39,436 nt of DNA from Escherichia phage vB_EcoP_Kapi1. Below the pieces are notes generated by a model, which saw only the letters and a list, made by a program, of their open reading frames with translations, did no database searches and was not told where the DNA came from. Positions 75 through 39,322 of the stretch are shown piece after piece. Both the position numbers and the translations under genes were made by a program. Within the stretch, counting starts at the first letter, position 1. Each line of letters begins with the position of its first letter. The stretch is from sequence record MT813197; one strand, written 5' to 3'.

Positions 75-96
75 TATTTTACCCGCTATTTTACCC
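75..96. repeat. Tandem direct repeat TATTTTACCC x2 (75-84, 87-96), candidate Int arm-type / RDF binding sites
   Basis: Exact 10-mer repeated with 12-bp period next to att core; same TTTTACCC motif recurs in both orientations at 39278-39322 upstream of int. Confidence 0.45.
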
Positions 97-291
97 ATTG
101 GCGCGGCTTAAGAGCTTATTTTTGAATTCACAATGGTCACGATATAACCATCTTGCTCGACCGTGGATAACTTTGGCTTTTGGCAGGTCGCCGGACTTAA
201 TCCGGTCATAGATGAAGGTTTTACCAAAGCCAGTATCAGCCATGATGAATTTCAAATCAACCAGTGAATCAGGCTGTAGTTCGTGTTGCAT
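91..291 (-). CDS. xis: Excisionase / recombination directionality factor, AlpA family (TorI-like)
   Basis: 66 aa, MQHELQPDSLVDLKFIMADTGFGKTFIYDRIKSGDLPKAKVIHGRARW; matches my recollection of KplE1 TorI; GGAG RBS 8 nt upstream of ATG; adjacent to att core. Confidence 0.8.
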   Translation of the reverse strand: MQHELQPDSLVDLKFIMADTGFGKTFIYDRIKSGDLPKAKVIHGRARWLYRDHCEFKNKLLSRANG

Positions 292-551: not shown

Positions 552-851
552 TTATTCGATTCGCACACCTGGTATTTCGCCTTTTGAAATGGCGAAGTCA
601 TAAATTTGCGCAGCACTATACCCATCTCGCATCCATGAATCTAAGGCGCGAATAGCCTCGCTACGCTTTTTATCTTCTCTTTCATTTTTGATATCAACGA
701 GGACATCAACGCAATTAAGGCATATGTGGATTTTGTCCTTACATTCGATCATGGCGGCTTTACCATGATTTCCGCCACACAGTGAGCATAAATCTTCAGG
801 GTCTGGCTGGTATTTCTGTAACGTTAAAGGGTTGAATGTTGAACAGGCCAT
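552..851 (-). CDS. Hypothetical zinc-ribbon protein (CxxC...CxxC)
   Basis: ORF 552..863; start moved to third in-frame ATG (849-851) which has a GGAG RBS; motif CSLCGG...CLNC. Confidence 0.5.
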   Translation of the reverse strand: MACSTFNPLTLQKYQPDPEDLCSLCGGNHGKAAMIECKDKIHICLNCVDVLVDIKNEREDKKRSEAIRALDSWMRDGYSAAQIYDFAISKGEIPGVRIE

Positions 852-861
852 AATCATCTCC

Positions 862-888
862 ATAAAACAAAACTCGCCGTAGCGAGTT
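862..888 (-). terminator. Rho-independent terminator (minus strand)
   Basis: Hairpin AACTCGC-CGTA-GCGAGTT followed on minus strand by TTGTTTTAT. Confidence 0.5.
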
Positions 889-1936: not shown

Positions 1937-2128
1937 CTATTTCACCTTAATTTCAACATTTCGCAGCTTTAGCTCCACTGGCAGTTCTGACTTTCCGGTT
2001 AAAGCTAATGCGAGATTTTCTGGAGTAATGAGAGCTGTTATTGTTTTCCCCGTCGCCAGACGAATAATCATTCGTATCTCGCGATCGTCACATGCTCCCG
2101 GCCGAACAATTGAGATTTGTCCGTTCAT
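1937..2128 (-). CDS. Hypothetical protein (63 aa)
   Basis: Tightly packed in operon (3-nt gap to the gene at 1287..1934). Confidence 0.45.
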   Translation of the reverse strand: MNGQISIVRPGACDDREIRMIIRLATGKTITALITPENLALALTGKSELPVELKLRNVEIKVK

Positions 2129-2129
2129 C

Positions 2130-2624
2130 TCACTCTCCTTTGATGCGAATGCCAGTGGTACTCATTCTCCTGATTTCCCAGAGCACACGAGGAATACCAC
2201 CGTTTCCGACCGGATCGCGTTTACTCCGCAGGGCGACGCTTGATTCCGCCCAGCTTTTTCTTGGAGGAAGCTCTTTCACACGAACAAAACCAGCTGCGCG
2301 AAGAGATGCTCCTGATTCATCTGCCTGGGTGTACGTAATACAACGTTGATAACCCATAGCTTTTGCTGCCCGCCAGATAGCACCATAAAGCGCGCTGTTA
2401 GCGTTGCGTTCTCCTGTGGTACATGTGCGATTTACTTCAAGCGTTAATCCATCGTCGAAATGTCGTGCAACAGGTCGACCAGCTGTCGCCACACCTATCA
2501 ATTCTCCGGCATTATTTCTCAGACCAATGCTGAATTTATGCCCCACTGGTGGTTTATTGTGTCGGTGGTGCTGTGCGATAAATTCCTGCGCCGCTTTCAG
2601 CGTTATAGGTGAAATGACCATCAC
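2130..2624 (-). CDS. Hypothetical protein (164 aa), weak GNAT-like C-terminal motif
   Basis: ORF packed 2 nt from downstream gene; motif YTQADESGASLRAAGF; family not recognised with confidence. Confidence 0.5.
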   Translation of the reverse strand: MMVISPITLKAAQEFIAQHHRHNKPPVGHKFSIGLRNNAGELIGVATAGRPVARHFDDGLTLEVNRTCTTGERNANSALYGAIWRAAKAMGYQRCITYTQADESGASLRAAGFVRVKELPPRKSWAESSVALRSKRDPVGNGGIPRVLWEIRRMSTTGIRIKGE

Positions 2625-2629
2625 TCAGA

Positions 2630-3013
2630 CTACTCCTTGATGCCAGCGGCGCGGGAATCATTCCATCGCTTTACTTCTTCACGAATTACGTCAATGCATT
2701 CTTTCGAATCCATTAGGTAATCTTCATCAAAAAGACGTTCCTGTTCGTTTTCTATCGCAACAATGATTGCTTCAACTAATTTTTGTGCCTGAGAATCACT
2801 TTCTAACTCTGCAATGCGCTTACTCCCATCCGAGATAACACCTTCGTAATACTCACGCTGCTCGTTGAGTTTTGATTCAAGTTCACCGAACTTACGGACA
2901 AGATATTCAGCGTTTGTTTCGTTAACCTTTAAATCTCGTGGGATGCATTTACCTTTCAGAAAACCATTCATCTCAATTAGTGTCATTTGTTTCATTTCTT
3001 CCCACCCCGCCAC
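2630..3013 (-). CDS. Hypothetical acidic protein (127 aa)
   Basis: ORF in operon orientation. Confidence 0.5.
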
Positions 3014-3172
3014 ATCGCATTCAGATATTTGTTTTGATTCACTGAAGGAAAAGAATTTCTCTTAAGCAATTCCTCTCTCGATGGCATTGGCTTTACGCGT
3101 TGGCGAATAATCATTTCTGCCGGAAGAATGCCGGGATTGTATGCAAGTCCTCTCATGGTAAATTCCTCTTTG

Positions 3173-3487
3173 TTAATTTATTCGTATGCCTGCTCTTTCT
3201 TCATCGAGTTTTTTTAGCTTGTATCGCATAGCTCTTACTGAATAAATTGAGCGGCAGGTTGCAATTGCTATTTCTTCTGCGGAGAACTTACCGAAAAGTG
3301 ATACTTCGGCTCTTGTCCAGCGTCTTCCACGAAGTCGGCTAACAATGTCAGCGCCAATCCTTGTTGCTTTCGCCATAACTGCTTTTTCAGTCCTTTCCAG
3401 TTTTTCAGCAATAACTTCAACTGGCATTGTCGCCGATACTTCGCGCAAGAAATCGACTTCCCATTTCTCCCATGGAGTCTTTTTCAT
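3173..3487 (-). CDS. Hypothetical protein (104 aa), internally duplicated W..E..L...EEIA motif, possible DNA-binding
   Basis: Two similar halves: [22 protein letters not shown] / [23 protein letters not shown]. Confidence 0.5.
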
Positions 3488-3498
3488 AGGCGATACCG

Positions 3499-3987
3499 TT
3501 ATTTGATAAGAAGTGAAGGTTTCCCAACCTTGAGTTGAGCACCGGGAATATTTATTCCTGCTTTTAGTTGGTGCTTGATTGCCAGTTTGTCGGCTTTAAT
3601 TGTCGTTTCAAACTCAACGTATTCAGGAGGAAGGGCGCTTGAGTCGATTATTTCTACAATTTCTGACGGTTTGCGGATTGTTACCTGGTGAATACCTGCT
3701 CGAATATTTTTCTTGCCAACCATTTCAAGAGATGACGCTATATATGATTTGATGCTGTCAATCTTATTTTGAATTACTGCGGCTCGCTCATTCAGTGACT
3801 TTGCCTCTTCCTTGAGGCGTTCGGCATAACCAGATTCATTTTTAATGACGGAAAGAAGTTGTTCTATTTTATCGGTAAATTCTCCTTCCATGCCTTCTAT
3901 TGTGTCAGCAATCATCTCTGGTTCTAAATCTGAATCCATCAATTTTGCGTATTCATTGGCAATTTCATATAGTTTGCTCACTGGCAA
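3499..3987 (-). CDS. Gp157-family protein (recombination-associated)
   Basis: 162 aa, coiled-coil rich, immediately downstream of recT as typical for Gp157-like genes. Confidence 0.5.
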   Translation of the reverse strand: MPVSKLYEIANEYAKLMDSDLEPEMIADTIEGMEGEFTDKIEQLLSVIKNESGYAERLKEEAKSLNERAAVIQNKIDSIKSYIASSLEMVGKKNIRAGIHQVTIRKPSEIVEIIDSSALPPEYVEFETTIKADKLAIKHQLKAGINIPGAQLKVGKPSLLIK

Positions 3988-4876
3988 CCTCCAGTTTCGC
4001 TTTGCATTCTATGTAAATGGCTTGTACGTTCTGCTGCAATTTCATTCCAGATGTCAGGCGATATGCTTCTGCAAAATATCTCTTCAAATCATCCATGTTT
4101 TCAGCCTGAGCCATTTCATCACAAAGAAGTTGTGCTTTATCCGTTATTTCCTGCTGGCGTTTCCGTTCATCTTCGCGGATATCTTCCTCTGATTTGTGCG
4201 GCATAACTGGTTCAGTCCATACACCTTCTTCTTCGTTTAGTACGTGAATAGCACTATCAAGACGTGATGCCTTAGGCCAATACTTGCTTGCACGCTTTAC
4301 GACCGTCTTTCGCGCCATCTCATTCCAGTGATTTACCCATGGTCCTTTATCGCTGAATGCCGCCTTGCTTGTTTTCCTTACAGCCTCAATTTCAGCCAGA
4401 CTCATCTCTTCCGTTAGATAATCACCTGCTGGCGTCTTAACTGTGCAGTAAACACCAACGATATCGCCACGATCACCGAAGGCGTTGTATTTATGGGTTG
4501 GTGCTTTATCAAGTCCGTTTGACTCATAAGTATCGTTAGCATGAACAAGCTTTGCCTGACCCCATGAGATAACACCAGACTCCATTGCAATATGTAGCAA
4601 TCCCATATAGCTGATATCAAGGCAAACCATGCCGTCGCGCGGAACCAGATAAGCCAGTTTGCTAGCCGGGTTTAAGGTGATACCGATCGCCGCAACATTG
4701 ATGATGGCGTTCTGTGCGCTGGTTGGATTTGCCAGTGCTGTTTTAGCCAGGTAATCATTTTTCTGGAAATACTGAATTGCAAACTGGCTTTCCTTAGCCC
4801 ATGTCACCGTCTGTTCAGTCAATGCTCCGCAGAATAACTGCTCCTGCTGTTTAACGAATTCAACGATATTGCTCAT
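3965..4876 (-). CDS. recT: RecT-family single-strand annealing recombinase
   Basis: 303 aa; motif GPWVNHWNEMARKTVVKRASKYWP parallels RecT GPWVTHWEEMAKKTAIRRLFKYLP. Confidence 0.85.
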   Translation of the reverse strand: MSNIVEFVKQQEQLFCGALTEQTVTWAKESQFAIQYFQKNDYLAKTALANPTSAQNAIINVAAIGITLNPASKLAYLVPRDGMVCLDISYMGLLHIAMESGVISWGQAKLVHANDTYESNGLDKAPTHKYNAFGDRGDIVGVYCTVKTPAGDYLTEEMSLAEIEAVRKTSKAAFSDKGPWVNHWNEMARKTVVKRASKYWPKASRLDSAIHVLNEEEGVWTEPVMPHKSEEDIREDERKRQQEITDKAQLLCDEMAQAENMDDLKRYFAEAYRLTSGMKLQQNVQAIYIECKAKLEVASEQTI

Positions 4877-5184
4877 GCAGCTTCTCCATAAATATGTCTG
4901 CGTTTGAATATTGCGAAGGCATATTCAGCCTTAACTCTTTCGGTTATTGCATCCCAGAACCATTCAGCGGCTTTTTCCTGATAGTTACAGTCATCATCTT
5001 CCAGCCAGTCGATAGCGTCCTTAGTGTGTTCATCTGGTTTATATGAGCGAAGCATTTCGCTTATTGGGTCGCAACGTTTGCAGAGGCGATCAACTTCACT
5101 GTTGATTCGTTCGTAATCTTCATCAGTAAAACTTGCGATTATTTGCGATATTTCACGCTTATCATTCAGAGTCAGAATCATCAT
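4873..5184 (-). CDS. Hypothetical protein (103 aa) upstream of recT
   Basis: Overlaps recT start by 4 nt (translational coupling). Confidence 0.5.
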   Translation of the reverse strand: MMILTLNDKREISQIIASFTDEDYERINSEVDRLCKRCDPISEMLRSYKPDEHTKDAIDWLEDDDCNYQEKAAEWFWDAITERVKAEYAFAIFKRRHIYGEAA

Positions 5185-5620
5185 CTTTCTCCTGTTCTTT
5201 GTGCTGATTGAGCATTTTGTTCATCTGACGAATGAATTCTTCGTCTGACCAGTTATCTGTAAAACTCATTTCCTGCGATACCATGGAAGGTTGATAGCTG
5301 ATTTCATCGCTTTATTTGCTTCAAGCCACATTTTTGAATCACCAATAAATCGGGCTATTACTGCTTTGTTTTGTGCAGCACGAAGCATCTGGTGATTAAT
5401 GGCTATTTCATTGCGCATAACGCCTCCAGTTGTTTCTTTGCTGCTCTGATTAATTGTTTAACTCGGCGTGATAATTCAGATTCGTGCGGGTAGAAAGCGG
5501 ACATGACGCCGCTACCCGCGAGCTGAAAGTGCATCATGGGTAACTCCTTATATTTGATTGCATAACGAAAATGCCTCTCGTGAAGCATTATTGGTATGCG
5601 GTAAAGCCGCGCTCAGGCGG

Positions 5621-5869
5621 CTACTCTATTTCTTCTTCGAATGATTTTATTAGTCGGTCAATAACATCATCCGTTTCAATATCATTTCCGTCTGATTGCT
5701 TTAATACATCTATTGATTCTGCAGCGGTAAATTCCATCGCTGTGAGAAACTCGACAATTGCACACTCAACGACATATCGTTCTTCATCTGTACGACATGA
5801 GATAAAAGAGCATTTAATTGCTGTTATTACTTTTTGTTTAAGCTCTGCAGGGTAATCAGTTTTTATCAT
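5621..5869 (-). CDS. Hypothetical small acidic protein (82 aa, about 20 D/E)
   Basis: Strongly acidic composition, C-terminus SFEEEIE. Confidence 0.5.
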   Translation of the reverse strand: MIKTDYPAELKQKVITAIKCSFISCRTDEERYVVECAIVEFLTAMEFTAAESIDVLKQSDGNDIETDDVIDRLIKSFEEEIE

Positions 5870-6043
5870 CGTTCACTCCGTCAAAAAAATTTCCCTCACA
5901 TTGGAGGGCAAAGAAGATTTCCAATAATCAGAACAAGTCGGCTCCTGTTTAGTTACGAGCGACATTGCTCCGTGTATTCACTCGTTGGAATGAATACACA
6001 GTGCAGTGTTTATTCTGTTGTTTATGCCAAAAATAAAGGACGA

Positions 6044-6667
6044 TTATGCGACCTCGGAAGGAAGTCCAATCATCTTATTCAAATCTTCTACCCGTAAAGC
6101 AGGAAGTGCTGTACTTGCTTTATCTGCTTCTTTTGGTAGCAACTCTTTGCTTTCAGGCCAAACTTCAATAAGTCGCTTAACTGTTGTGACTGAGTTCAAA
6201 GCAGCCCATACATTTGATTCGATATCCTTTTTCTTGGCTTCAAGTTTTTGTTGCAATGCGCAGATTTCATCAAACCTTTTTGTTATTTCGTGTTCTGCGC
6301 TAAACATGCATTTATCTTTGGTCGGAGTAGGGAGCAATATATCTTCGCCGTTGCCGTCTTTCCCATATGAATACCAGCCAACCCTTCTGCCAGATACAGT
6401 CAGATAAATTGAAGTTGAACGGGCATCGCATGAGTAAAATGAACATCCCAGCTTTTCAAGTTCTTCGCTTATAGCCATTAACTTGGATGATAACTGATCC
6501 ACTTCCTCAGTTTTCTTTTTACCGCCAAACACAACAACTCTGGCGTCAAGTGCAAGCTGGTTCTTTAACTTTGTTACTTCTTCAAGCTCAGTGAAAACCC
6601 CAGATTTAATTAAAGCGTTACGAGCGATTTTCTCTTTCATACTCGTTGTTAAGCGGATTGATGACAT
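6044..6667 (-). CDS. Hypothetical protein (207 aa)
   Basis: ORF 6044..6727; start moved to in-frame ATG at 6665-6667, which has a GAGAGG RBS. Confidence 0.5.
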   Translation of the reverse strand: MSSIRLTTSMKEKIARNALIKSGVFTELEEVTKLKNQLALDARVVVFGGKKKTEEVDQLSSKLMAISEELEKLGCSFYSCDARSTSIYLTVSGRRVGWYSYGKDGNGEDILLPTPTKDKCMFSAEHEITKRFDEICALQQKLEAKKKDIESNVWAALNSVTTVKRLIEVWPESKELLPKEADKASTALPALRVEDLNKMIGLPSEVA

Positions 6668-7764: not shown

Positions 7765-8415
7765 TTAAGGAAGGTTTGCTAGCTTGGCATCAACGACAAC
7801 GCCAATGATTTTACAGTTCCCATTGATTTCAATCATTGGGTATTGTGGATTGAGTGGTTTCAGGAATTTTCTACCGGCATCAATAACTAACTTTTTGAAT
7901 GTCGCCTCGTTTTCTCCTTCAAGTTTGGCGACTACCAGCTTTCCATTACGTGGTTCGACTTCTGGGTCGACGAGAATAATCATCCCCTCAGGAATACTCA
8001 GTCCTGCCGGGGCAGTCATTGAGTCGCCTTTAACATCGAGCCAAAAAGAGTCTTCAGAACAATCTACCGTTGTGTCGTACCAGTTATCTATTGCACGCCT
8101 ATGATATGGCTCTACAGCTTCCATCCAACATCCTGCGCTTACCCAACTAATTAGAGGATACGAACCTCTTGGATCATGCCTGCTGTGATAGGCAATGTTT
8201 GAAAGACTATCCTCTCCTTTCAACAGGTAATCAGGGGAGCACTGCAAAGCCTTGGCTAAGGCCAATAGGTTTTCGCCATTGGGCTCAGTTTCAGATCGCT
8301 CCCATTGGGAAATAGCAACATTAGACACGCCAACCATCTTGCCAAGGGCAGCCTGCCTAATCTTGAGTTCTTTTCTGCGAGCGCGAATACGCTCACCCAT
8401 CAGTTGTGTATTCAT
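7765..8415 (-). CDS. c2: CI-type repressor (P22 c2-like), HTH plus LexA-type autopeptidase domain
   Basis: 216 aa, MNTQLMGERIRARRKELKIRQAALGKMVGVSNVAISQWE...; near-identical to my recollection of P22 C2. Confidence 0.9.
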   Translation of the reverse strand: MNTQLMGERIRARRKELKIRQAALGKMVGVSNVAISQWERSETEPNGENLLALAKALQCSPDYLLKGEDSLSNIAYHSRHDPRGSYPLISWVSAGCWMEAVEPYHRRAIDNWYDTTVDCSEDSFWLDVKGDSMTAPAGLSIPEGMIILVDPEVEPRNGKLVVAKLEGENEATFKKLVIDAGRKFLKPLNPQYPMIEINGNCKIIGVVVDAKLANLP

Positions 8416-15570: not shown

Positions 15571-15645
15571 GGGTCAGTCGTATAAAGGTCATTACGGAAG
15601 GCTGTTAACCTTCTTATCGTGGTTCGAGTCCACGCTGTCCCGCCA
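15571..15645 (+). tRNA. tRNA-Asn (anticodon GTT), one U-U mismatch in acceptor stem
   Basis: Hand fold: acceptor 6/7 bp, anticodon stem GAAGG/CCTTC with loop CTGTTAA, T-arm CGTGG-TTCGAGT-CCACG, 3' CCA encoded. Confidence 0.6.
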
Positions 15646-15650
15646 AATAT

Positions 15651-15726
15651 GCTGGTTTAGCTCCAATGGTAGAGCAGTCGCCTTGTAAGCGAATGGGTAG
15701 CGGTTCAAGTCCGTTAACCAGCACCA
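15651..15726 (+). tRNA. tRNA-Thr (anticodon TGT)
   Basis: Hand fold: perfect 7-bp acceptor GCTGGTT/AACCAGC, D-arm GCTC/GAGC, anticodon loop CTTGTAA, T-loop TTCAAGT, 3' CCA encoded. Confidence 0.7.
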
Positions 15727-33804: not shown

Positions 33805-34001
33805 ACCACCTCCATAGCATTTTGGTGATATTACTATTGTCAGATGCACCAAAGTACCCTTTGCGCATCCCATTAGAGGTTAAGTTAGCAATCGAGAAGT
33901 CAGCGAAAGAAAATGGTCGCTCAATAAATACCGAGATGGTAATGCGATTGGTGGATAGTTTAAGGCGGGATAGTTCTAAAGGTAATCTAGCAAAAAGTTG
34001 A
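33798..34001 (+). CDS. arc: Arc-like repressor (ribbon-helix-helix); start uncertain
   Basis: [38 protein letters not shown] parallels P22 Arc; candidate starts GTG 33798, GTG 33825, TTG 33837. Confidence 0.65.
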
Positions 34002-34063
34002 AGCCCCAACTGCGGGAACAGTCAGGGCTTCGGTATCAACAAATCGGCTTAGGAAATATTGAC

Positions 34064-38122: not shown

Positions 38123-39277
38123 TTACTCTTTCCCATCAAGCCAGTCCGCCCACCATTGCATCATTTCTCTGCGTTTGTCGAGATACTGAGCATGGTTGTA
38201 AATTCCACGCACGGATCCGCCGTTGGCATGTGCCAGTTGCACTTCAATAGCATCAGCGGGCCATTCGTGCTCGTTCATAATCGTGCTGAATTCATGCCTG
38301 AATCCGTGACCGCTTTCCAGACCCTCATAGCCGATTTGTTTGATCACAAGCAATACCGCGTTCTCGCAGATTGGCTTCTTCTTATCGTTGCGCCCGGCAA
38401 AAACAAACTCTGATACTGGTTTGGTGATTGAGCTTAGCGTAGTGAGAAGTTCAACCACCTGGTCCGACATCGGGACCACATGAGTTTTGCGGCCCTTCAT
38501 CACACTGGCGTCGATGGTGATAATCCTGTTTTCAAAATCGACGTTCTTCCATAGCATGGAACGAAGCTCTTTCGTTCTTAGGGCAGTGTAGCGTAAAACT
38601 TTGGTCGCAATGAGCGATACGATACTTCCTGAAAATGTTGCCAGTGCTTTGTTGAATGCAGGGATCTGGTCTGCAGGAAGAAACGGGAAGTTCTTCTTGC
38701 GGTATCCCTTCATGGCGTCTGCAAGGTCAGGTGCCGGGTTATATTTAGCCCTTCCGGTGACAATAGCGTAACGAAAAACCTCGCCGCATCTTCTGCGGGC
38801 TTTGTTGGCTCGCTCCATTGCACCGCGATCTTCAAATCTGCGGATTACTTCCAGCAGTTGCATCGGCTCAATATCCTGAATCTCAAGGCCGCCGATGATG
38901 GGTAAAATGTCGTCATCAAACATTTTGGCAAGTTCAGTTGCATAGCCTACTGACCAGACTTGCTTCTTGTGCTCGTACCATTCCTTGTAAATCGCACTAA
39001 AGGAATTGTTGTTAGACGAAGCCTTTTTCGCCTTTACCGGATCGATGCCAACCGAGATGTCTTTCCTCGCAGTCCATGCTTTATCCCTTGCCTCTTGCAA
39101 AGTCATAAGCGGATATTTTCCGACAGTCAGGATTTTCTCCTTACCGTCAATCTTGTAGCGAAGCTGCCATACCTTTTTCCCTGATACAGGGACATAAAGG
39201 TACAGGCCATTACCATCGAGTAGGCGGTATGGTTTTTCTTTCGGCTTTGCTGCTTCAATCTGCTTAACGGTGAGCAT
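38123..39277 (-). CDS. int: Tyrosine integrase, P4-type (KplE1 IntS-like)
   Basis: Start placed at MLTVKQIEAAKPKEKPYRLLDGNGLYLYV; C-terminal catalytic region HGFRHEF...RGIYNHAQY; the ORF-track start at 39313 is a GTG. Confidence 0.85.
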   Translation of the reverse strand: MLTVKQIEAAKPKEKPYRLLDGNGLYLYVPVSGKKVWQLRYKIDGKEKILTVGKYPLMTLQEARDKAWTARKDISVGIDPVKAKKASSNNNSFSAIYKEWYEHKKQVWSVGYATELAKMFDDDILPIIGGLEIQDIEPMQLLEVIRRFEDRGAMERANKARRRCGEVFRYAIVTGRAKYNPAPDLADAMKGYRKKNFPFLPADQIPAFNKALATFSGSIVSLIATKVLRYTALRTKELRSMLWKNVDFENRIITIDASVMKGRKTHVVPMSDQVVELLTTLSSITKPVSEFVFAGRNDKKKPICENAVLLVIKQIGYEGLESGHGFRHEFSTIMNEHEWPADAIEVQLAHANGGSVRGIYNHAQYLDKRREMMQWWADWLDGKE

Positions 39278-39322
39278 GGGTAAAAATCCGGTGGGTAAAA
39301 TTATTTTATCCACTTTTTACCC
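39278..39322. repeat. TTTTACCC-type motifs (GGGTAAAAA, GGGTAAAA, TTTTTACCC) immediately upstream of int start; candidate Int/RDF binding sites
   Basis: Same octamer as the tandem repeat at 75-96, here in both orientations. Confidence 0.45.

Follow-up and report, generated by a model that had tools for sequence, protein, structure and literature searches.

A Mom-clade GNAT-fold protein in a mosaic run of early accessory genes of Escherichia phage vB_EcoP_Kapi1

Results

A block of five small genes on the minus strand

We analysed the 39,436-nucleotide sequence of Escherichia phage vB_EcoP_Kapi1 (record MT813197), hereafter termed the window, with a focus on a block of small genes at positions 1937-3487 that includes a gene for a 164-amino-acid protein. 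A preliminary description, made from the sequence alone, had listed the block as four consecutive, tightly packed genes of no recognisable identity, with products of 63, 164, 127 and 104 amino acids. The coordinates and lengths of these four open reading frames (ORFs) are exact, and all four are encoded on the minus strand. They are not consecutive, however, since a gene for a DUF2737 protein lies between the 127- and the 104-amino-acid ORFs. Moreover, the 127-amino-acid ORF does exist at 2630-3013, but its start is most likely M7, which gives a product of 121 amino acids. The block contains the following genes:

1937-2128, minus strand: 63-amino-acid basic protein (from the ORF list)
2130-2624, minus strand: XF1762-family, Mom-clade GNAT-fold transferase (predicted), 164 amino acids from the GTG at 2624 or 163 from the ATG at 2621
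2630-2995, minus strand: 121-amino-acid predicted acidic coiled-coil protein; the 127-amino-acid ORF reaches 3013 from an upstream GTG
2992-3156, minus strand: 54-amino-acid DUF2737 protein (Pfam PF10930)
3173-3487, minus strand: 104-amino-acid basic protein with two predicted tri-helical, helix-turn-helix (HTH)-like repeats (ORF list, profiles and AlphaFold2 (AF2) model)

The genes are separated by 1-16 nucleotides or overlap, and the Shine-Dalgarno sequence of each sits within the 3' end of the preceding gene. No minus-strand promoter-like or terminator-like sites were found within the block. The five genes are co-transcribed and translationally coupled in the leftward early (pL) operon, a reading that is supported by the tight coupling and the lack of such internal sites. 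The prophage of E. coli MP1 has the same gene order as the window, and its RefSeq annotation starts the 164-amino-acid gene at the ATG one codon in, resulting in 163 amino acids.

The 164-amino-acid product is an XF1762-family protein with a complete GNAT fold

The 164-amino-acid product had been considered unannotatable, yet a curated family, a PHROG label and a RefSeq name already exist for it. It matches the NCBIfam model NF045478 ("XF1762 family protein") with 205.8 bits (cutoff 50), residues 4-137 being aligned to model positions 2-130 of 143, and PHROG 1384 ("Mom-like DNA modification protein") with E = 7e-43. The identical protein WP_021560749.1 is named "XF1762 family protein" in RefSeq. 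The family, which owes its name to Xylella fastidiosa XF1762, includes phi1026b gp66, ZF40 gp36 and Min1 gp31. All features that are invariant in it (hHRH, GRP..R, E-x-N-R, N-x-x-S, T-Y-T, E-S-G-x-S-L and two tryptophans) are present in the Kapi1 protein, which shows no structural difference from the other members; the gene itself follows an Ea22-like gene within the 'ea' region of the lambdoid prophage. Many close homologues carry a precomputed match to the Pfam Mom family (PF25680.2), and some other XF1762-family members clear the PF25680 threshold (27.3-28.1 bits). PF25680 is also matched by 26 of the 57 XF1762 representatives of at least 200 amino acids, in a few cases above the gathering score.

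The AF2 model of the protein (predicted local distance difference test (pLDDT) 88.6) shows a single domain with a complete GNAT fold. Its top PDB match in Foldseek is Mom of phage Mu (8BV8; E = 8.4e-8, TMq 0.71-0.72), other GNATs reaching at most 0.67, and two methods agree in ranking Mom as the closest structure. The motif ADESGASLRAAGF, in which a weak C-terminal GNAT-like signature had been seen before, is real and sits in the beta5-alpha4 region of the fold. This earlier hint was correct and even understated, as the GNAT fold extends over the entire protein and no solved structure is closer to it than Mu Mom. We regard the assignment to the XF1762 family and to the GNAT fold as nearly certain. 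The profile and structure searches that the preliminary description had proposed for the block identified the 164-amino-acid product (XF1762, with Mom as the nearest fold). The 63-, 121- and 104-amino-acid products stay "hypothetical protein" in RefSeq.

Compared to canonical GNATs (RimI, 5ISV; a Bacillus cereus protein, 1Y9K; phosphinothricin acetyltransferases), sequence identity is 10-17%. In contrast to these enzymes, the 164-amino-acid protein has the E-x-N-R arginine of the Mom type and lacks both the glycine-rich coenzyme A (CoA) loop and the tyrosine of alpha4, and the genomic context of its family is DNA modification. The position of the pyrophosphate loop (R/Q-x-x-G-x-G/A in GNATs) reads R73-N-A-N-S-A, with a similar spacing and no glycines, and the position of the catalytic alpha4 tyrosine is occupied by leucine.

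Distribution and genomic context of XF1762 genes

The XF1762 family is very large: at 90% identity it falls into 4,439 clusters, and at 50% identity it has 3,294 representatives, of which 2,174 reach E <= 1e-10. Among phage records, only 31 of 50,697 contain a relative; these phages infect Escherichia, Pectobacterium, Burkholderia, Pseudomonas, Mycobacterium, Microbacterium, Streptomyces, Synechococcus, Pelagibacter and Vibrio. The gene is present, and 95-100% conserved, in 144 of 5,426 complete E. coli genomes (~2.7%). Twenty of its 151 places in E. coli genomes are plasmid-borne (e.g. NZ_CP138414.1, 99.6 kb) and lie next to an ead/Ea22-like gene; these plasmids may be phage-plasmids.

To describe the context of distant family members, we surveyed the 57 representatives of at least 200 amino acids for fusions and drew neighbouring genes from six annotated phages and the fusion proteins. 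The extra domains in the long representatives include C5 DNA methylase, D12 N6-adenine methylase and PAPS-reductase (two cases), and further polyvalent-protein domains (LPD28/YodL/DUF4316), RepA_N, phage single-stranded DNA-binding protein and resolvase/recombinase domains. Several of the fusions are seen on 2-6 contigs. Unlike the window copy, distant members adjoin DNA methyltransferase/ParB or terminase genes. In Burkholderia phage phi1026b, gp66 overlaps a DNA methyltransferase gene by 4 nucleotides and is followed by a ParB-like gene, and in Mycobacterium abscessus prophages the XF1762 copy lies near a methyltransferase gene and directly upstream of an HNH endonuclease gene. The copies of HTVC034P, Min1 and ZF40 are located beside late/terminase genes, a placement reminiscent of the late position of Mu mom and of the 'ParB-terminase' loci for DNA modification that Iyer and Aravind have described (PMC4738411). 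Gene 61 of the Pelagibacter phage HTVC034P (L008, 809-1276) abuts the gene for the large terminase subunit on its upstream side, in the usual slot of the small terminase. Among the close relatives we found just one with a DNA-modification neighbour, locus L080, where an ORF for a 641-amino-acid C5-cytosine-methylase-like protein with ENV and PC motifs (4168-6093) starts less than 200 nucleotides downstream of the XF1762 gene.

A census of the neighbours in 80 IMG/VR loci from close enterobacterial relatives (at least 83% identity) revealed no conserved partner of the GNAT gene. One locus (L010) is identical to the window. The gene downstream of the GNAT gene varies among the loci, being the 63-amino-acid gene in only 9 of the 80. 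The gene upstream is usually Ead/Ea22-like and longer than that for the 121-amino-acid product of the window (57 of 78 loci); the 127-amino-acid gene occupies this place in only 5 of the 80. Any unit implied by the listing of these genes together is contradicted by these counts, and the variable neighbours rule out that the four or five genes form one functional module. Since the neighbours differ among prophages, the genes of the block are separate cassettes and not one system. The block is an ordinary mosaic run of five small lambdoid accessory cassettes that are shuffled independently. The absence of a constant partner fits a single-enzyme system, as is the case for Mom.

Comparison with Mom

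Mom transfers glycine from Gly-tRNAGly to the N6 of adenine in double-stranded DNA, which is followed by a rearrangement on the base, and its structure (8BV8) has been solved (Silva et al., 2026, PMC13219725). R111, S124, D149 and R151 are essential, whereas H58, Y59, W48 (involved in dimerisation), Y159 and W181 are important (PMC13219725). An HTH-like insertion (~175-209) is indispensable, as its deletion abolishes activity (PMC13219725). Mutants of H48, Y49, R101, S114, D139 and Y149, in the numbering of the 231-amino-acid form, had been described before (Karambelkar et al., 2020, PMC7261163), and the essential arginine is conserved among Mom homologues but not across GNATs (PMC7261163).

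We aligned the XF1762 family (alignment A1) with the Mom family (alignment A2) in hhalign and obtained E ~1e-3 over 120-160 columns, the register being identical in local, global and relaxed modes. The residue equivalences given here rest on this profile alignment, and the counts on 50 XF1762-family and 37 Mom-family sequences. The near-invariant positions that are common to both families are (XF1762/Mom) H20/H58, E63/E108, R66/R111, N74/N121, S77/S124, G105/G156 and W125/W181. R66 is found in 50 of 50 XF1762 members and R111 in 37 of 37 Mom proteins; S77, which is aligned to S124, is found in 46 of 50, and W125, which pairs with W181, in 48 of 50. R66 and S77 pair with R111 and S124 in every hhalign mode. 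In addition, the XF1762 family has invariant residues of its own, namely H22, R50, P51, R54, T97, E103 and S107.

Thus, the two proteins are alike in their GNAT fold and in their near-invariant H, E-x-N-R, (R)N-x-x-S, G and W positions. Both are moreover basic, phage-borne and encoded by a single gene that lacks a fixed partner, and PHROGs labels both "Mom-like DNA modification protein". The 164-amino-acid protein has an isoelectric point of 10.5 and a net charge of ~+12 (25 K+R versus 13 D+E). It differs from Mom in being shorter (164 versus 231-241 amino acids), as it lacks ~38 N-terminal residues including the dimerisation residue W48, a part of the insertion and the C-terminal tail. Furthermore, its gene has no Com-like translational activator and belongs to the early-left operon, whereas mom is a late gene controlled by Dam, C and Com. 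In summary, the 164-amino-acid protein, a GNAT of the Mom clade in which the Mom-specific arginine is retained, departs from Mom proper in several features that define the latter.

A predicted DNA-modifying enzyme and its alternatives

We consider it about an even chance that the 164-amino-acid protein is a nucleobase acyl- or aminoacyltransferase that acts on DNA and protects the phage from restriction. In this model, a single phage enzyme would bind double-stranded DNA and work like Mom. R66 in beta4 (Mom R111) and S77 in alpha3 (Mom S124) would position the nucleobase and the activated acyl donor, which could be an aminoacyl-tRNA (the donor of Mom) or an acyl-CoA (the usual donor of GNATs). 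Phage DNA that has received the group would then be refractory to host restriction enzymes. The model is supported by the fold with Mom as its nearest structure, the retained residues, the fusions and neighbours linked to DNA modification in relatives, the high basicity of the protein and the lack of a constant partner gene; that the substrate is DNA, that restriction is counteracted and which donor serves are inferred. That anti-restriction functions reside in the early-left region of such phages had been suggested in the preliminary description, and the Mom-like assignment is consistent with this idea.

A number of observations weigh against this model. With 24.0 bits, the protein stays under the gathering score of Pfam Mom (PF25680), which is 27.1, and the hhalign comparison of the two families gives a probability of just 22%. 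By pairwise BLAST, the similarity to Mu Mom does not reach significance (E = 0.33), and a sequence search of the PDB returned nothing (best E = 1), so that the link to Mom is visible at the profile and structure level only. Several residues on which Mom depends are replaced: D149 (37 of 37 in the Mom family) by Y98 (Y in 46 of 50 XF1762 members), R151 (also 37 of 37) by Q100 (21 Q, 15 L and 12 R among the 50), Y59 by R21 (R in 49 of 50), Y159 by L108 (L in 45 of 50) and the dimerisation residue W48 by K10 (22 R, 14 K and 7 A in the family). The beta6-beta7 insertion (residues 120-145), with one short helix, comprises ~25 amino acids compared to ~40 in Mom, and this much shorter element is poorly modelled (pLDDT 57-65). 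The fusions are mostly singleton metagenomic clusters, some of which may be gene-calling artefacts, and apart from the one locus described above the gene has no DNA-modification neighbour in enterobacterial prophages. In the literature on Mom-like proteins, momylation and prophage Mom GNATs, we found no experiment on any XF1762-family protein, no study of short proteins of the Mom-like kind and no paper on "XF1762" itself. Finally, the Mom gene is late, tightly regulated and toxic, whereas the XF1762 gene of the window is in an early operon.

The replacement of D149, R151, Y59 and Y159 together with the shorter insertion places the 164-amino-acid protein in a sister family of Mom, not in Mom itself. 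The remodelled active site and the reduced insertion further suggest that Mom, whose product is ncm6A, and the 164-amino-acid enzyme differ in donor, target base or product; ncm6A is probably not the product of the latter. A more far-reaching proposal, which we put forward tentatively and think less likely than the general model, is that XF1762 represents a second and far wider Mom-like clade that adds an undescribed acyl or aminoacyl modification to a DNA base. Here, Y98, E103 and R21/H22 would take the place of Mom D149, R151, Y59 and Y159 and permit the use of another aminoacyl-tRNA or acyl-CoA donor, or of another base.

The protein might instead be a conventional acetyl-CoA-dependent GNAT that modifies a protein or a small molecule (a polyamine or an antibiotic-like compound) for host takeover or lysogenic conversion. 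While this is what most readers would expect of a GNAT fold as such, we think it unlikely, as the protein has the Mom-specific E-x-N-R with its essential arginine and the tryptophan after beta6, a near-invariant leucine in place of the canonical alpha4 tyrosine, fusions and neighbours that are overwhelmingly DNA-modification or DNA-metabolism proteins, and a high positive charge that suits a nucleic-acid substrate. The charge would serve an enzyme directed to RNA (tRNA, rRNA or mRNA) as well, which could reprogram or block host translation, for example by acylating a base or the amino acid attached to a charged tRNA. GNATs that act on tRNA are known (TacT, TmcA and FemX-type enzymes using aminoacyl-tRNA), Mom itself binds tRNA (PMC13219725), and its DNA-binding HTH-like insertion is largely absent from the 164-amino-acid protein. 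Early expression coincides with the time at which host takeover functions act. We rate an RNA substrate as somewhat more doubtful still than a conventional GNAT.

Two further readings are very improbable. The GNAT and the downstream 63-amino-acid protein could form a toxin-antitoxin or abortive-infection pair of the TacAT/AtaRT type, considering that they are encoded side by side in translationally coupled genes, with a single nucleotide separating stop and start, and that GNAT toxins are of similar size. However, the 63-amino-acid gene follows the GNAT gene in just 9 of 80 loci and more than 100 phages have it without a GNAT gene. The order is also reversed, as antitoxins of GNAT toxins are encoded upstream, and the 63-amino-acid protein has neither a ribbon-helix-helix nor any other antitoxin domain and no PADLOC match. 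None of the TacAT, AtaRT and KacAT toxins appears among the structures that best match the fold of the 164-amino-acid protein. Co-occurrence, gene order and the lack of antitoxin features thus largely refute such a pair. Slightly less probable again is a decayed, truncated and inactive remnant of Mom, as might be suspected from the length of 164 versus 231-241 amino acids, with losses at both ends (~38 residues at the N-terminus and the tail at the C-terminus) and within the insertion, and from the exchange of several catalytic residues. It is refuted by conservation across the family: the 3,294 clusters at 50% identity (2,174 with E <= 1e-10) have near-invariant H20, R21, H22, R50, P51, R54, E63, R66, N74, S77, T97, Y98, E103, G105, S107, L108, W125 and W149, and these residues are kept from Proteobacteria to Actinobacteria and cyanophages. 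Moreover, the fold is complete and confidently predicted, and the copies of the gene in 144 E. coli genomes are 95-100% conserved.

The other four genes of the block

The basic 104-amino-acid protein (isoelectric point 10.0) had been noted for an internal duplication of a W..E..L...EEIA motif, suggestive of tandem DNA-binding helices. A raw pairwise self-alignment with a shuffle test did not find the repeat significant (z = 0.6), but this result is superseded by profile tests. With hhalign, unit 1 and unit 2 of the family match each other with E = 3.8e-4, and unit 2 matches a third unit (W-x2-E-x2-L...E-(E/V)-I-A...R-(S/T)-I), which is present in longer relatives of ~152 amino acids, with E = 1.8e-10 and 97% probability. 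In the AF2 model (pLDDT 82), helices 8-17/23-30/34-44 and 59-66/70-77/81-102 form two tri-helical units. Thus, by profile comparison and structure prediction, though not by the raw pairwise test, the duplication is a genuine tandem HTH-like repeat.

The protein matches PHROG 11492 (E = 1e-22) and, with its central part, PHROG 323, "transcriptional regulator, D5-like" (E = 3e-19). It lies barely over the gathering score of Pfam HTH_12 (21.5 versus 21.4 bits), its family profile weakly matches the LuxR-type HTH of NarL (E = 0.014), and the longer relatives carry Pfam Sigma70_r4_2. The top Foldseek matches of the model are bipartite HTH domains (a CRISPR-repeat-binding protein, the Pax paired domain, AraC, the Tc3/Mos1 transposases and the Mu activator C), none of which is a significant match to a specific HTH family (best E = 0.1, template modelling score ~0.35). 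The tandem tri-helical units are like those of bipartite HTH domains (LuxR/sigma-70 region 4 type, AraC, Pax and the N-termini of Tc3/Mos1). In contrast to these, the family is narrow, with 52 clusters limited to Enterobacteriaceae, and is not tied to them by a statistically significant match. The model suggests that the 104-amino-acid product is a probable tandem-HTH-like DNA-binding protein.

The 63-amino-acid protein is basic as well (isoelectric point 9.5) and has a single cysteine; an AAGGAG Shine-Dalgarno sequence of its gene lies within the end of the upstream gene. It matches PHROG 1222 (function unknown) over its full length with E = 2e-40, and nothing in Pfam, NCBIfam or PADLOC; the PADLOC defence models returned no match for any of the five proteins of the block. 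Its gene occurs in more than 100 records of Stx or lambdoid phages that have no GNAT gene. We rejected a Com-like regulator, given the single cysteine, the lack of a recognisable domain, the downstream position and the co-occurrence in 9 of 80 loci. Matches to polyubiquitin (E = 1e-8) were also discarded, as they stem from a 21-residue patch (TGKTIT...P) that is summed over the repeats, di-ubiquitin giving E ~0.3-0.5. The patch, MIIRLATGKTITALITPEN at residues 19-39, resembles the N-terminus of ubiquitin, MQIFVKTLTGKTITLEV, probably by chance.

The start of the 121-amino-acid product is most likely M7, because this ATG overlaps the stop codon of the DUF2737 gene as ATGA and because RefSeq annotates the form of 121 amino acids (a coding sequence of 366 nucleotides in E. 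coli MP1). The product matches PHROG 614 (E = 2e-28); the Pfam Ead_Ea22 model (PF13935) aligns to the 121/127-amino-acid product with its last 27 positions only and with 22.8 bits, which is below the gathering score of 27. Its sequence suggests an acidic coiled-coil protein that is distantly related to Ead/Ea22-like proteins. Compared to those of lambda and P22, it is encoded in the same 'ea' position but is much shorter than the typical ~260 amino acids. The 54-amino-acid product, "DUF2737 family protein" in RefSeq, matches PF10930 with 107.4 bits (E = 3e-31, gathering score 25; residues 1-51 of 53 model positions) and PHROG 1117 (E = 9e-38), and its gene occupies the matching position in the 'ea' region of lambda and P22. 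The 63-amino-acid, 121-amino-acid and DUF2737 products are accessory proteins of undefined function.

The prophage and its early-left region

The window reads as a P22-like lambdoid prophage, with the block in the leftward early 'ea' accessory region (pL operon), where the recombination genes (RecT/Gam-like) are to one side of it and the xis/att end is to the other. The features that define this setting are:

91-291, minus strand: 66-amino-acid, Xis-like TorI/Xis protein, RefSeq name in E. coli MP1 "response regulator inhibitor TorI"
1287-1934: dATP/dGTP pyrophosphohydrolase (formerly DUF550) and DUF551 gene, flanking the block
3499-3987: Gp157/Mu-Gam-like gene, on the other flank
3965-4876: RecT gene, on the same flank as the Gp157/Mu-Gam-like gene
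7765-8415, minus strand: repressor-sized ORF
33996-34062, minus strand: P22-type sar antisense RNA (P22 immI), Rfam 72 bits (gathering score 43)
38123-39313: integrase

The repressor-sized ORF is followed by rightward modules for replication, lysis and the virion. The placement of the block in the leftward early 'ea' region follows from the layout of the repressor, integrase and Xis genes together with the sar RNA, which also backs the P22-like identity of the prophage. Both the flanks given in the preliminary description, with recombination genes on one side and the DUF550/DUF551 gene on the other, and its assignment of the block to the early-left accessory region of a lambdoid phage are borne out, the former by profile matches and the latter by the surrounding genes, the sar RNA and the RefSeq gene order of MP1.

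Many unrelated 'ea'-region genes, in the window as well as in the ORFs upstream of the GNAT gene in related loci (L009-L088), share a similar C-terminal tail, ...(A)AGI(K/R/N)(I/V)(K/E/N)GE. Examples from the window are TTGIRIKGE, RAAGIKE and RAGIRIN (2130-2160, 2630-2650 and 3173-3195, minus strand). The Shine-Dalgarno sequence of the following gene is contained in the DNA that encodes the tail. The tails appear to be conserved module-junction sequences, which could mediate translational coupling and recombinational shuffling.

Elsewhere in the window, two phage-borne tRNA genes, tRNA-Asn(GTT) and tRNA-Thr(TGT), are located upstream of the lysis genes (15571-15726, plus strand), and there is no tRNA-Gly gene. 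They may deserve mention only since the donor used by Mom is a charged tRNA. A 103-amino-acid product (552-863, minus strand) has a CxxC...CxxC pattern that is weakly similar to the C4 zinc finger of ClpX (E = 0.015).

Discussion

For decades, Mom was a one-off hypermodifier of adenine, and its use of charged tRNA-Gly was shown only in 2023-2026. Now that its mechanism and structure have appeared, and with databases already labelling XF1762 proteins "Mom-like", the nature of the latter has become testable. Being small and self-standing, present in E. coli prophages that are easy to work with (that of MP1, for instance) and different from Mom at precisely the catalytic residues, the XF1762 gene offers an inexpensive and straightforward way to ask whether Mom-type chemistry has spread widely and diversified. 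The other four genes of the block are routine accessory cassettes.

Should the XF1762 protein prove inactive on DNA, this would call for caution with the label "Mom-like DNA modification protein". If it is active on DNA, on the other hand, many ordinary lambdoid prophages would harbour a DNA modification that has so far been overlooked and that bears on restriction evasion, on the host range of phages used in therapy and on the interpretation of sequencing signals. And if XF1762 is indeed a second Mom-like clade, ordinary lambdoid prophages would have a hidden capability for DNA hypermodification and anti-restriction.

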